DNA of 64,000 bases from Bacteriovorax stolpii. Its GTDB lineage: Bacteria; Bdellovibrionota; Bacteriovoracia; Bacteriovoracales; Bacteriovoracaceae. A program made the position numbers and the translations under genes. Where the stretch lies: the NCBI GenBank assembly GCA_945883845.1, contig CAMCYI010000004.1, forward strand, positions 1,475 to 65,474, read 5' to 3'. Position 1 is the first letter of the stretch; every line of letters begins with the position of its first letter. Under the pieces are notes generated by a model. It was not told where the DNA came from, made no database searches, and saw nothing but the letters and a program-made list of their open reading frames with translations. Positions 46,975 through 51,169 of this stretch are shown here, piece after piece.

Positions 46975-48642
46975 ATGAAACAGCTATTTACCATTCTTAT
47001 GAGTCTCAACTTAATTCTCGCGCCTGTGGCGTTAGCTGCTGATGGTACTCAGAAAACAGGGGATGAGTTCAGGGCGAATCCGAATGCGAAAGGTGGCATG
47101 GATTTCATGAAGAACATCATGAGTATTGGTACGGGTATTATTGGCGTGAATGCTTTGATGACCTGTAAGACAGCAGTAGGGACTGCTCCGTCAATCTACG
47201 TCCTGGCGGCCGGTTCTGCGATCTTCATCATGAGCGAATTACTCGGTGGTAAGGCACACAACGATTACCTAAGAAAAAGTGCCGCTGACTTAAAAATGGT
47301 TGAAGAGAAATTGAAAAAAAGCGGTGGCGGTGGAGAAGTCCAGCTTGCATCACTGGAAGCTGCTTTGAATAACGAGAAAGAAATTCTTAAATTCATCAAC
47401 AAAAGAAAAATGTGGGCCACCGCTACGATGGCCGTGTATGCGGCGGGGATAGCTGCCGTCATTATTGAGAATGCGAATTTTTATAACGTGGCACCAGCAG
47501 GTTGTACTGGCGAAGGGATTATTAAACATAGGCTTACTGGAGTTGCCATTGGAGCTGCCTATAGTTTCATGGCCGGAGGTATGGCCTCAGGATTGGTTAC
47601 TGGTCTCGGTACTTACTTGATTGGGCCTGGTGCTATGTCTCACATGCTCCTTAATACGAAGTACACAAGAGGCGCATTTTTTGGCGCAGCTACGGCCATT
47701 CAACTGTTCACAGTTATGGATCTTGGAAAGAAAGCAAAAATTGCTCAAGAAAATATCGGGAAGCTTGAAAAGGCCATCACTGAATTCAAAGCGACCAGTG
47801 GATCCACAAATGGACTCATTGCCGAAGCAACCAGTGGTGTGGGAAGCGGAATGATTGATCCCAACGATGGTCGAGAGTTCGCAGTTAAACCTCTACCTCA
47901 AACTGATGAAAATTCGATAATCTGTGCCAGTAATGCTGGAGGGAGTGTTGATATCTCCAGCAAGGCCTGTGCTCAACCTATGCGTCTTGCTGCTGCGAAA
48001 TTCGATCCTCGGTTTAACGTTCCTTCTTTGACTGCATTTAACCAGCAAGCCGCAGATGTCGGGAATGCCTTAAATAGCGGTGACCTCGCAGGCGCAGAAA
48101 TTGGCGCCGCCGCACTTGCTTCTCAAGCAGGTCGTATGAATCAGATCAAAGACAATTTGTTAAAGCAAACAAATGCAAAACTCAAAGCGCAGGGTAAGAA
48201 GCCTATCGATTTTGATGCAGACACTCGGAATGCTCTTCGTAGCATGGCAAGTGCTTCGAAATCCAGCAATCCATCGATGTCGGCCGCCCTTACGTCTCTG
48301 GCTGAAGGTAAAACAGAATTACCAGATGACCTCAAAGGCTCAGAAAATCTCGGCACCTCTCAGAACATCATCGCCAACGCTCCAGCTGCTGCACCAGAAA
48401 CAGCAACACCTAATCTCTCAGAAGGTCTGAATGAAGGTATTGAACCAACGCCGACACTCTCTAAAGTCGATGACATCATGAAGTCCGATGATTTTGAATA
48501 TGATAAGAATGATATCTCCAAACAAAAAGAGACATCTCTCTTCAACATTGTTTCTTCGCGCTACCTGATCAGTTACCCGAAGATCTTTAAGCTTGAAGAA
48601 CCTGAGACTGTACCAGCTAAGCCAGTTCCACAGAAGAAATAG
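46975..48642 (+). CDS. Secreted coiled-coil protein with long hydrophobic core, paralog 3 of 3
   Basis: Same architecture; SLFNIVSSRYLISYP. Confidence 0.85.
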   Translation: MKQLFTILMSLNLILAPVALAADGTQKTGDEFRANPNAKGGMDFMKNIMSIGTGIIGVNALMTCKTAVGTAPSIYVLAAGSAIFIMSELLGGKAHNDYLRKSAADLKMVEEKLKKSGGGGEVQLASLEAALNNEKEILKFINKRKMWATATMAVYAAGIAAVIIENANFYNVAPAGCTGEGIIKHRLTGVAIGAAYSFMAGGMASGLVTGLGTYLIGPGAMSHMLLNTKYTRGAFFGAATAIQLFTVMDLGKKAKIAQENIGKLEKAITEFKATSGSTNGLIAEATSGVGSGMIDPNDGREFAVKPLPQTDENSIICASNAGGSVDISSKACAQPMRLAAAKFDPRFNVPSLTAFNQQAADVGNALNSGDLAGAEIGAAALASQAGRMNQIKDNLLKQTNAKLKAQGKKPIDFDADTRNALRSMASASKSSNPSMSAALTSLAEGKTELPDDLKGSENLGTSQNIIANAPAAAPETATPNLSEGLNEGIEPTPTLSKVDDIMKSDDFEYDKNDISKQKETSLFNIVSSRYLISYPKIFKLEEPETVPAKPVPQKK

Positions 48643-48644
48643 TA

Positions 48645-48666
48645 TCACCGCCACCGGTGGCGGTGA
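48645..48666. repeat. Perfect 22-bp palindrome 3 nt after the paralog 3 stop (hairpin)
   Basis: tcaccgccacc/ggtggcggtga; no U-tract. Confidence 0.7.
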
Positions 48667-48800: not shown

Positions 48801-49856
48801 CTATCCGTGAAAAGGGTAGTCCGTGTATCCCTCTTTTCCACCACCGTAAAACGTCGCCATTTCCTGAGGCTGGTTGAGGGGCAGATTTTCAAGAAAGCGT
48901 TTTGGTAAATCGGGGTTGGTGATAAAATTCACACCCCAGGCAACAGCATCGGCATCACCGCGCTCGATGATTTTCTCTGCTTCTTCTTTTGTTACTTTTT
49001 GATTAGCGATGAGGACTCCACCAAATTCTTTTTTTAGATAAGGATAAAGTGCATCATCGCCCTGAGCTTCGCGGGTAAAAATGAAAGCAATCTTTCTTTT
49101 TCCAAGTTCGCGCGCCACATATCCGAACGTTGCTTTTGGATCCGAGTCGCCCATGTCGTGCGCGTCCATACGGGGCGCGAGATGCACACCGACGTAGCCT
49201 GCACCCCAAACTTTGATCAGTGCATCCGTGATGTCGAGAAGAAGTCTCGCGCGATTTTCAATGGGACCGCCATACTTATCTGTACGTCTATTTGTTTTAT
49301 CCTGCAGGAACTGATCAATGAGGTATCCGTTGGCCGCGTGGAGTTCAATCCCATCAAAGCCTGCGCGCTTGGCGTTCTCAGCACCTTTTCTAAAACCTTC
49401 AATGATCAGATCGACTTCATGTGTTTCAAGGGCACGGGGTGTGACGTAATTTTTCTCGGGACGAACAAGACTTACATGACCGGCCGGTTGAATCGCACTT
49501 GGTGCCACAGGCAGTTCACCGTTTAAAAACATGGGATCAGAAATGCGACCGACGTGCCAGATTTGAAGAACAATCTTGCCGCCTTTCGCGTGCACAGCCT
49601 TGGTGATTTTTTTCCATCCTTCAACCTGGGCCTCATTATAAATTCCCGGCGTGCCAGCGTATCCGGCACCCATGGGATCCATGATCGTGGCTTCCGTAAG
49701 AATGAGGCCGGCAGAGGCCCTTTGAGAATAATATTCGGCCATGAGCTCATTCGGAACACGGGATTCACCGGCGCGGGCCCTGGTTAAGGGCGCCATGATC
49801 ATGCGGTTTGAAAGCTCGAGAGATCCGGCCTTAAGTGGTTTTGCGAGAATACTCAT
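48801..49856 (-). CDS. Alkene reductase (Old Yellow Enzyme / NemA family)
   Basis: MAPLTRAR, YYSQRASAG, QIWHVGR, GIELHAANGYL.DQF, NRRTDKYGG; start ATG 49856 with AAGGA RBS. Confidence 0.95.
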   Translation of the reverse strand: MSILAKPLKAGSLELSNRMIMAPLTRARAGESRVPNELMAEYYSQRASAGLILTEATIMDPMGAGYAGTPGIYNEAQVEGWKKITKAVHAKGGKIVLQIWHVGRISDPMFLNGELPVAPSAIQPAGHVSLVRPEKNYVTPRALETHEVDLIIEGFRKGAENAKRAGFDGIELHAANGYLIDQFLQDKTNRRTDKYGGPIENRARLLLDITDALIKVWGAGYVGVHLAPRMDAHDMGDSDPKATFGYVARELGKRKIAFIFTREAQGDDALYPYLKKEFGGVLIANQKVTKEEAEKIIERGDADAVAWGVNFITNPDLPKRFLENLPLNQPQEMATFYGGGKEGYTDYPFHG

Positions 49857-49881
49857 AATAGATCCTTTAAAAAATTTGGGA

Positions 49882-49957
49882 TGGAGGAGATGGATGGATT
49901 TGAACCACCGAATACCAGTTTTGCACACTGGTCCCTTGAACTCTCGGGCACATCTCC
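49882..49957 (-). tRNA. tRNA-Cys(GCA), 76 nt, CCA encoded, with atypical G32 and U19
   Basis: Folded by hand: acceptor GGAGAUG/CAUCUCC, D stem CCC/GGG, anticodon arm CCAGU-GUGCAAA-ACUGG, T arm GGUGG-UUCAAAU-CCAUC, U73, CCA. Confidence 0.85.
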
Positions 49958-49962
49958 CCAGA

Positions 49963-50029
49963 TAAATGCAATCTTGATTGTTACATTAAGACCATTTATG
50001 TCTAAATGCAACAATTAAAAATGCATTTA
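49963..50029. promoter_or_regulatory. Two tandem 27-bp imperfect inverted repeats, probable Rrf2 operators
   Basis: TAAATGCAA-N9-TTACATTAA (49963-49989) and TAAATGCAA-N9-ATGCATTTA (50003-50029), 40 bp apart. Confidence 0.6.
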
Positions 50030-50054: not shown

Positions 50055-50468
50055 ATGGTCGATACCCGCTTTTCTGTATCAATTCAGATTTTGTTGACCC
50101 TGGCCTATCATGGCGAGGAACTCTCCCGTTCTGAAATGCTGGCAAAGGCCGTGAAGTCTCATCCGACATTTATTCGTAAACTAGTCTCGCGTCTGGTGGC
50201 CGGTGGACTTGTACAAAGTGTGCGCGGCAAAGGAGGCGGTGTGAAACTGGCCATTGATCCGCAGGACATTACACTAAAAGATATTTACCTCGTTGCCCTG
50301 GATGAGAAGCCCATCATCTGCACTCATAAGAACACTGTGACCAAATCCTGTGCTGTCAGCTGCTCCATGAACGATATCCTGAAGAAACTGGTTTATGACA
50401 TGGACGCAAATACTCAGACTCATCTTGAAAAGACACGTTTAAGTGATCTTTTGAAGAAAATTTCGTAA
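50055..50468 (+). CDS. Rrf2-family transcriptional regulator (YwnA/HypR/SifR-like)
   Basis: RFSVSIQILL, HPTFIRKL...L...GLV.S.RGK.GG, ITLKDIY, Cys cluster CTH...SCAVSC; TGgTAACAT 6 nt before ATG. Confidence 0.9.
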   Translation: MVDTRFSVSIQILLTLAYHGEELSRSEMLAKAVKSHPTFIRKLVSRLVAGGLVQSVRGKGGGVKLAIDPQDITLKDIYLVALDEKPIICTHKNTVTKSCAVSCSMNDILKKLVYDMDANTQTHLEKTRLSDLLKKIS

Positions 50469-50491: not shown

Positions 50492-51169
50492 TTGAAATTC
50501 ATCATCATTGCATTGCTTTTTTGTGCAACATCCGTGTTCGCTACGCCAATGGCGATCAGTGTTCTTTTTACGGCCGACGAAGATAATATGTTGTGGGCCA
50601 CGAAGATCAACAAAGAGCTTCATGACAAATATCCTCAGGGTTTTCGTTTTGATGATTCTCATCTCTCTCATGTAACGATTCTCCAGGCCTATGTTGATAT
50701 CTCATGCCTTGATGACAAATGGGACGACATTGAAAAAGAAGTAAAGGCGAGCCGCCTACTTGGTGAGAAGATAGAAATCTCTGGGGTCAAAGCAGAGGCC
50801 CTTCCCTCACCTTCACCACTCTCTCTAGTGAACTTAAATCTCTCAACTTCCGGTAAGGCCCTGTCACTTCAGAAAAAAATTCTCGATCTCCTCGCTCCTT
50901 GCCGGGTTGAAACAGAAACACCGAAAGCATTTTCAGGATTGATAGCACCAGGTGATTTCATCATTCAGTATGTGAAAGATTATCCAGCTCAAAAAACCAA
51001 AAATTTTTACAGGCCACACATGACATTGGGTCTTGCTAAAACTGCTGACAGCGAAAAGATTGCAGCGGCGGCGGTGCCTCTCTCACACATGACCGTCAAA
51101 CGTATCGGTGTTTTCAAATTGGGAGCATCTGGTACTGCACGCGAGCGTCTCTTCTCTTTCGATAAATAG
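50492..51169 (+). CDS. Secreted 2H phosphoesterase (2'-5' RNA ligase superfamily)
   Basis: GGAGG + TTG; signal peptide; HxT motifs SHVTI and PHMTL. Confidence 0.7.
   Translation: MKFIIIALLFCATSVFATPMAISVLFTADEDNMLWATKINKELHDKYPQGFRFDDSHLSHVTILQAYVDISCLDDKWDDIEKEVKASRLLGEKIEISGVKAEALPSPSPLSLVNLNLSTSGKALSLQKKILDLLAPCRVETETPKAFSGLIAPGDFIIQYVKDYPAQKTKNFYRPHMTLGLAKTADSEKIAAAAVPLSHMTVKRIGVFKLGASGTARERLFSFDK

Follow-up and report, generated by a model that had tools for sequence, protein, structure and literature searches.

A non-canonical tRNA-Cys paralog between an Rrf2-type regulator gene and an old yellow enzyme gene: a candidate specialised tRNA of Bacteriovoracaceae

Introduction

What is a tRNA-Cys gene with highly unusual bases doing in the leader of an old yellow enzyme (OYE) gene? 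The question arose from a 64-kb stretch of DNA (the window; C4:1475-65474 of a 3.6-Mb host assembly that is 93% complete), for which the original prediction described a 76-nt cloverleaf with a GCA anticodon, U73 and an encoded CCA, which carried an unusual G at position 32, lacked G18-G19, and ended 25 nt from the OYE start with no terminator between them. Three readings were offered: a specialised second tRNA-Cys, a tRNA-like processing or regulatory leader, or a decaying copy.

The choice between these readings matters, as extra-translational tRNA paralogs are known from very few systems, chiefly the cell-wall tRNA-Gly of staphylococci. In the full-text literature (searched for tRNA-Cys with Rrf2, tRNA-like RNA with OYE, and tRNA-mRNA leaders), we found no description of this element, nor did we find any specialised tRNA paralog under a dedicated redox- or electrophile-type repressor, and none for cysteine.

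Results

The window encodes a tRNA-Cys without a complete elbow

ARAGORN called a single tRNA in the 64-kb window, a 76-nt tRNA-Cys(GCA) with the sequence GGAGAUGUGCCCGAGAGUUCAAGGGACCAGUGUGCAAAACUGGUAUUCGGUGGUUCAAAUCCAUCCAUCUCCUCCA:

49882..49957, minus strand: tRNA-Cys(GCA)-derived paralog (ARAGORN, Rfam, MFE fold, covariation, EF-Tu T-stem calculation)

The element matched the Rfam tRNA model at 56.6 bits (E 1.5e-9), and its MFE and centroid folds in ViennaRNA were both cloverleaves (-26.6 kcal/mol, z = -2.5), a fold that was retained when the leader sequence was included. Like a canonical elongator tRNA-Cys, it has a 7/5 acceptor/T architecture, a GCA anticodon, and U73 and CCA, both of which are gene-encoded; its variable loop has 5 nt, its T-loop retains U54-U55-C56, and its 7-nt anticodon loop reads G32-U33-G34-C35-A36-A37-A38. 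ARAGORN, Rfam and the MFE fold thus all bear out the cloverleaf, anticodon, U73 and CCA that had been described.

The element departs from a canonical elongator in two places. Its D-loop (AGAGUUCAA) contains no GG, so that the G18-G19:Psi55-C56 elbow pairing is lost; one G may serve as G18, and position 19 is a U. It also carries G32 where a pyrimidine is expected. Among the 31 tRNAs that ARAGORN found in the genome, 30 have a pyrimidine at position 32, the element being the only one with a purine, and it is likewise the only one whose D-loop lacks any GG. Both oddities named in the original prediction are therefore real, and unusual for this organism.

The element directly precedes an OYE gene

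Downstream of the element, on the same strand, we found the following features:

49857..49881, minus strand: A/U-rich spacer of 25 nt from the CCA end to the OYE ATG, with the Shine-Dalgarno sequence AAAGGA (sequence, scan)
48801..49856, minus strand: NemA-like old yellow enzyme (FMN oxidoreductase), 351 aa (Pfam PF00724, E 2e-70)
48645..48666, minus strand: terminator-like hairpin 3′ of the OYE gene, the sole one in the unit (consensus scan)

The OYE ATG, at 49856, lies exactly 25 nt past the CCA end, and a consensus scan of this spacer, which has no room for a promoter, found no promoter-like or terminator-like site, in agreement with the gap as first described. The tRNA thus stands directly upstream of the mRNA, on the same strand and across a clean gap, as in a tRNA-mRNA co-transcription unit. 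In orthologous loci the spacer is 16-31 nt long and poorly conserved, and we take it as the putative site of 3′ endonucleolytic separation. The best NCBIfam match of the OYE is the N-ethylmaleimide reductase subfamily, at 352.7 bits, which is under the 403-bit cut-off. The hairpin at 48645-48666 is GC-rich (TCACCGCCACCGGTGGCGGTGA) with 9 bp, lies between the OYE gene and a convergent 555-aa ORF ending at 48642, and is likely a shared bidirectional terminator.

A canonical tRNA-Cys coexists with the odd copy

Searching the whole genome for another tRNA-Cys, one of the checks proposed with the original prediction, returned a second, canonical gene of 78 nt at C21:3-80, with GG in its D-loop (AGUGGUCCAA) and U32 in its anticodon loop (UUGCAAA). 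This gene lies 2 nt from a contig end, the assembly breaking at the gene. The 5′ third is near-identical between the two genes (GGAGA[U/C]GUGCCCGAG...AAGGGA), which indicates that the odd copy is a duplicate of the lineage's own tRNA-Cys.

In the same GTDB genus, BLAST together with a covariance model built from the family placed the odd copy in 18 of 51 genomes. The canonical and odd copies occur together in 15 of these 18, including both complete genomes, and in the other three (G002, G030 and G069, all fragmentary MAGs) the canonical gene is unassembled. Each genome has one canonical tRNA-Cys gene and one CysRS gene, and a second CysRS as a dedicated partner was accordingly rejected. The element is thus an extra copy beside a normal isoacceptor with its synthetase identity kept, as is typical of non-proteinogenic tRNA paralogs.

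An exact-pattern scan of approximately 185,000 species genomes gave 22 matches, all of them Bacteriovoracaceae/Peredibacter-type and one of them in the complete genome of a cultivated strain, Peredibacter sp. HCB2-198. A metagenome scan added 15, for a total of 37 public contigs, all Bacteriovoracaceae-type; the scans demanded the acceptor stem of the family, so that more divergent members may have escaped, and many of the surveyed genomes are fragmentary MAGs. U6-A67, the T-stem and the loss of G19 are derived characters common to all elements, which makes a single origin with repeated loss the simplest history. The OYE tree, too star-like for dating gain or loss of the element, requires six or more state changes, yet its well-supported branches permit a single origin.

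Cysteine identity elements are conserved while the elbow and a predicted weak T-stem mark the family as unusual

We compared the distinct variants of the element position by position. The seven acceptor pairs (GGAGAUG/CAUCUCC) are near-invariant, with one double change, as are U8, A14, G15, the CCC/GGG D-stem, A37, C48, G52-G53, T54, A58, C61-C62, U73 and CCA, and U33-G34-C35-A36 is present in 27 of 28 variants. This set unites the tRNA core (8-14, 15-48, 54-58) with the known CysRS determinants, which are the GCA anticodon and U73 (Pallanck 1992; Komatsoulis 1993; both cited in PMC5389517). Other positions drift: the D-loop GG is lost in 26 of 28 variants and kept in 2, C56 is lost in 13 of 28 and a UUC T-loop kept in 15, U33 is preceded by G in 13 and by U in another 13, and 11 of 28 variants have an 8-nt anticodon loop with compensatory changes in the flanking stem. 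The G32 of the window copy is therefore not a family-wide trait (13/28 variants). What characterises the family in general is that the D-loop has lost its GG and that the T-stem is fixed in a form predicted to bind EF-Tu weakly.

The variants fall into three sequence groups, A, B and C, the window copy belonging to group A. Groups A and B score 47-57 bits as tRNA in Rfam, compared with 58-62 for the canonical copies, and positions 31 and 39 are mismatched (C31.C39) in group B. In group C, the T-stem is extended to 6 bp (7/6) by a pair that covaries, and the T-loops are UGAAAAU or UUAAAAU, without U55-C56; one clade unites an 8-nt anticodon loop with the 6-bp T-stem and the missing U55-C56. Group C members fall below the Rfam tRNA gathering threshold, yet they share the position, acceptor stem and UGCA of the others. 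One metagenome variant (L083:572-650, contig JACCDR011044644.1) has the anticodon loop GUGAAAG, with GAA in place of GCA, yet U73, GG in its D-loop and a UUCGA T-loop are retained. Either the mutation is recent or this member has changed its identity.

We then estimated EF-Tu affinity from the T-stem pairs (G49-C65/G50.U64/U51-A63 in the paralog), taking the ddG of each base pair from Schrader and Uhlenbeck (PMC3239215, Table 2) and summing in a three-base-pair additive model. The calculated sum was +2.0 kcal/mol, to be read as an upper bound because stems of the G49C65/G50U64/N51N63 type are partly non-additive and real binding can exceed the calculated tightness, compared with 0.0 to +0.1 kcal/mol for the genus' canonical tRNA-Cys. 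The paralog T-stem is thus predicted to be approximately 1.9 kcal/mol weaker for EF-Tu than that of the canonical copy and to rank last among the genome's 31 tRNAs. It also lies approximately 1.8-1.9 kcal/mol off the bacterial tRNA-Cys class mean (-9.9, sigma 0.62 kcal/mol), outside the affinity expected of a Cys-class T-stem as far as a calculation with possible non-additivity can tell. A deviation of 1.3 kcal/mol has been used to flag tRNAs for extra-translational roles, for example the staphylococcal cell-wall tRNA-Gly (PMC3239215), and by calculation the paralog exceeds it. The same six T-stem bases recur in 16 of 23 unique variants while the loops and other stems drift.

These data bear directly on the strongest alternative, namely that the element is an ordinary, if sloppy, elongator, an inducible spare tRNA-Cys that raises Cys decoding once Cys-tRNA is damaged or trapped by thiol-reactive stress, and whose odd bases reflect relaxed selection on a gene in conditional use. 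The window copy, with its 7/5 cloverleaf, 7-nt loop, U33, A37, T54-U55-C56 and 56.6 bits against 58-62 for canonical copies, could indeed still decode, and the conserved CysRS identity set and the single canonical tRNA-Cys gene per genome suit such a role, as does the fact that tRNAPyl and mitochondrial tRNAs decode without G18G19/TPsiC (PMC7609411). Relaxed selection, however, sits poorly with a T-stem fixed at a predicted weak-EF-Tu combination in 16 of 23 variants despite drift elsewhere, with 8-nt anticodon loops upheld by compensatory stem changes in 11 of 28, with the 6-bp T-stem, missing U55/C56 and sub-threshold scores of group C, or with the C31.C39 mismatch of group B, and we consider this explanation doubtful.

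A divergent Rrf2-type regulator and two palindromes flank the element

Upstream of the element, we identified a divergent regulator gene and, between it and the element, two 27-bp palindromic operator-like sites 40 bp apart:

50055..50468, plus strand: divergent Rrf2-family regulator, 137 aa, with C99-x3-C103 (Pfam PF02082, E 4.8e-25)
50003..50029, no strand: operator-like site 1, perfect palindrome TAAATGCA-N11-TGCATTTA (repeats; conserved in orthologous loci)
49963..49989, no strand: operator-like site 2, imperfect palindrome TAAATGCA-N11-TTACATTAA (repeats; conserved block)

The regulator has a clear Rrf2 winged-helix domain (PF02082, E 4.8e-25), and its gene is divergent and 87-123 nt from the element wherever the flank suffices. 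Across 33 orthologues, C99 is conserved in 100% and C103 in 97%, and C89 is mostly Ser; with only C99 and C103 conserved, the three-Cys Fe-S ligand set of the IscR/NsrR type is absent. The NCBIfam models for IscR, NsrR, CymR, HypR and RirA all scored far under their cut-offs on the window's Rrf2, RirA and HypR giving weak matches (HypR 49 bits against a cut-off of 180), and unlike HypR the protein has its own C-x3-C motif. Its best structural relatives are YwnA-type (PDB 1xd7/1ylf). Taken together, a sensor of the HypR/SifR kind, responding to redox state or electrophiles through two Cys, appears most plausible, the signal itself being proposed by analogy.

Both operator blocks are conserved across orthologous loci and the surrounding sequence is not; in site 2, which ends 5 nt from the tRNA 5′ end, the conserved block is TAATGTA...ATGCATT. 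The alignment suggests a conserved TTGCAT-17-TAATGT as the promoter, with a putative -35 hexamer (50011-50006) overlapping site 1, and a putative -10 hexamer (49988-49983) and transcription start overlapping site 2; these hexamers fit the E. coli consensus poorly, and a scan with that consensus gave only a weak overlapping candidate, TAGACA-16-AACAAT. Nowhere else in the genome is the operator matched perfectly as it is at site 1, and looser matches are as frequent as chance predicts, which suggests that Rrf2 is probably a local regulator. A wider Rrf2 regulon was rejected, the few 1-mismatch sites being intracoding or unconvincing. One palindrome a single mismatch from the operator pattern, AATTGTAA-N9-TTACATTT (G000:C10:117709-117733), is situated between a SelD-like gene and a divergently oriented gene for a LysR-type regulator, and is probably a LysR site rather than an Rrf2 site. 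Directly after rrf2, the window encodes a 225-aa protein (50492-51169, plus strand) with a signal-peptide-like N-terminus and a weak, sub-cut-off match to the 2H phosphoesterase/2'-5' RNA ligase superfamily (PF13563, E 2.8e-4); it is conserved in the closest relative only (G066/L079, 46% identity) and thus probably lies outside the module.

The element and the OYE gene occur without each other

An OYE orthologue lies 16-31 nt downstream of the element at all loci but three, and 14 genomes of the genus have the OYE orthologue without the element. In G014, G022, G005 and G033, the same operator and promoter blocks are joined straight to the Shine-Dalgarno sequence, indicating that the OYE gene, with the same promoter and a short leader, does not need the element; the mature OYE leader would be similar with or without it. 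Loss from about 14 OYE-bearing genomes also shows that the element is dispensable.

Conversely, the element stands with intact operators and without OYE at three loci, in genomes from which the OYE orthologue is absent. At L070, where Rrf2 is upstream, the remnant of a Shine-Dalgarno sequence comes after the element, and then a terminator hairpin and a convergent gene; at L073 a convergent gene follows; and at L064 (641-717, genome G068) OYE is replaced by a gene for a 159-aa protein with a cyclic-nucleotide-binding domain (PF00027, E 3.4e-11). Persistence under Rrf2 without OYE suggests that the element is kept for its own sake and argues against a purely cis-acting role.

Such a role, in which the tRNA shape recruits RNase P or protects the 5′ end for the OYE mRNA and the released RNA is functionless, would account for the location of the element 16-31 nt upstream of the OYE ATG at nearly every locus, for the gap being free of promoters and terminators, and for the acceptor stem, T-arm and CCA, which are RNase P determinants, being best conserved. 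It leaves unexplained why the element stands under the Rrf2 promoter without a downstream gene in L070 and L073, why U33-GCA-A37 and U73 are conserved though RNase P does not need them, and how element-less OYE genes manage with the same promoter and a similar short leader. A pure processing signal is unlikely, having no need of an anticodon, and we judge the cis-acting explanation as a whole unlikely: of the processing or regulatory leader that was originally envisaged, the placement in the OYE leader, with the co-transcription that it would entail, stands, whereas a function confined to that leader fails on the three loci without OYE and on the conserved anticodon.

Across the family, no third gene that might use Cys-tRNA is conserved beside the module in the locus neighbourhoods, and no dedicated aminoacyl-tRNA-consuming enzyme was found there. 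At group C loci only, a conserved 392-414-aa protein is encoded a few nt after rrf2 (L073:1304-2545, plus strand; orthologues at L067, L090, L071, L061, L051, L053 and L060), and it is absent from the window's genome. It has an invariant GYDFHLT..GP.LIEINTNAGG motif and an N-terminal C-R-C...C cluster, gave no Pfam, NCBIfam or PDB sequence match, and yielded a poor AlphaFold model from 4 sequences (pLDDT 44).

The element is under purifying selection

Conservation in relatives, a second proposed check, extends to the 18 genus genomes noted above. Mean pairwise identities over 29 distinct loci were as follows:

Element: 83.7%
25 nt upstream of the element: 60.6%
Spacer to the ATG: 51.7%
OYE third-codon positions: 39.7%

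By this comparison, neutral sites are saturated and the element is not. The OYE proteins are only 66-83% identical and the Rrf2 proteins 50-74% identical across orthologous loci, so that the loci are old and vertically diverged.

The cloverleaf also covaries. When 23 unique sequences were aligned structure-blind with MAFFT, 95.9% of cloverleaf cells were standard pairs with 8 two-sided changes, none of 500 shuffles matched any of five measures, and sliding the pair partners dropped pairing to 30-56%. A model-based alignment of 28 distinct sequences agreed (95.9-96.4% paired and 7-8 two-sided changes across both). All five anticodon-stem pairs covary, and the closest relative, G066, whose OYE is 83% identical, shows a compensatory change from A29-U41 in the window copy to G29-C41. 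A decaying duplicate or functionless integration-site remnant, for which the non-canonical bases, the loss in many genomes and the one changed anticodon might speak, was therefore rejected as very improbable, given 84% identity where synonymous sites are saturated, compensatory changes in all five anticodon-stem pairs, conserved position and operators, no phage match, no integrase context, and 50-72% protein identity, which excludes recent horizontal copying of the loci.

Discussion

A canonical copy that coexists with the element, purifying selection with covariation, and a retained CysRS identity set together support the first of the three original options, a specialised second tRNA-Cys. We would go further and read the element as an Rrf2-controlled, Cys-accepting tRNA-Cys paralog that works largely outside bulk translation, with a non-proteinogenic or regulatory function in thiol-reactive stress, a reading for which we judge the chances to be evenly balanced.

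In the mechanism that we envisage, Rrf2 would leave the two palindromic operators, and a transcript would start approximately 12-20 nt upstream of the tRNA; in most genomes, the element would be the first gene of a two-gene transcript with the NemA-like OYE. RNase P would remove the 5′ leader and an endonuclease would cut the A/U-rich spacer past the encoded CCA, freeing the 76-nt RNA along with an OYE mRNA whose short leader would resemble that of element-less OYE genes. Since U73, G34-C35-A36, the acceptor stem and G15:C48 are kept, the released RNA is most likely bound by the single CysRS, which would recognise and probably charge it. The missing G19:C56 elbow and the predicted weak T-stem, joined in group C by changes in loop and helix geometry, may then hold the RNA largely out of elongation, and we read this combination, with the altered loops of one clade, as keeping it from bulk translation. 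The RNA may serve to donate thiol or cysteine, to titrate CysRS, or as a low-efficiency spare isoacceptor. More specifically, and tentatively, Peredibacter-type predators may make an on-demand Cys-charged tRNA that EF-Tu and the ribosome for the most part ignore, released from the leader of a detoxification operon upon inactivation of a thiol-sensing Rrf2 and acting outside translation (e.g., as a donor of cysteine or thiol to a transferase, or by CysRS titration); we regard this version as possible rather than probable.

The closest likeness in working is the non-proteinogenic tRNA-Gly of Staphylococcus, a glycine donor for FemXAB peptidoglycan bridges, in which G18G19 is replaced as well. 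Those tRNAs too exist in addition to a normal isoacceptor and retain their synthetase identity, and their T-stems are tuned to weak EF-Tu binding as outliers of more than 1.3 kcal/mol (PMC3239215, PMC7826273), a feature that in the present case is calculated only. In contrast to them, the element is Cys-type, lies in an mRNA leader under a redox-type repressor, and has no linked Fem-type or other aminoacyl-tRNA transferase among its locus neighbours.

In E. coli, tRNA genes are co-transcribed with mRNAs in metY-nusA-infB and thrU-tyrU-glyT-thrT-tufB, units in which the tRNA comes first, has an encoded CCA and is separated by RNase P/RNase E-type cleavage, metY being a minor isoacceptor. The arrangement of the element with OYE, known here from sequence, resembles these tRNA-first operons. 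The metY- and tufB-linked tRNAs are, however, canonical, translational and joined to translation factors, whereas the element is non-canonical, joined to a detoxifying flavoenzyme and placed behind a repressor-controlled promoter.

Two further systems resemble the element in part. Bacillus cereus tRNA-Other is also a tRNA-like RNA, a non-translational one that affects stress and antibiotic phenotypes (PMC3399842). Its gene borders a genomic island, it shows no well-defined identity set, and it affects tRNA-synthetase/T-box expression (PMC3399842), whereas the element described here is cleanly Cys by identity and stands in a fixed regulatory setting. The selC* tRNA-Cys of anaerobic bacteria is likewise an additional, non-canonical tRNA with U73 and GCA (or UCA); its acceptor/T architecture is 8/4, its variable arm is long and its partners are SelB*/CysRS* (PMC5389517). 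Membership in selC* was rejected, as the element has a 7/5 architecture (7/6 in group C), its variable loop is short and each genome has one CysRS.

On the regulatory side, HypR-MerA of S. aureus and SifR of S. pneumoniae are thiol- or quinone-sensing Rrf2 systems beside flavin reductases (PMC6067689, PMC9218516). Together with E. coli NemR-NemA, they share with this locus a small Cys repressor, an adjacent or divergent flavin oxidoreductase, and palindromic operators over the promoter. They differ from it in that no tRNA has been reported in their regulons.

If true, an on-demand, EF-Tu-avoiding Cys-tRNA would be the first stress-regulated non-proteinogenic tRNA-Cys. The family forms a natural series from near-canonical to clearly non-tRNA-like members with the CysRS identity set intact, and comes with natural controls in the form of genomes with and without the element, OYE-less loci and the cultivated, completely sequenced Peredibacter sp. 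HCB2-198, all of which makes a role of charged tRNAs as bacterial stress effectors directly testable. For annotation, "tRNA-Cys" calls in these genomes would cover two functionally different genes, and group C members escape the tRNA threshold of Rfam altogether.
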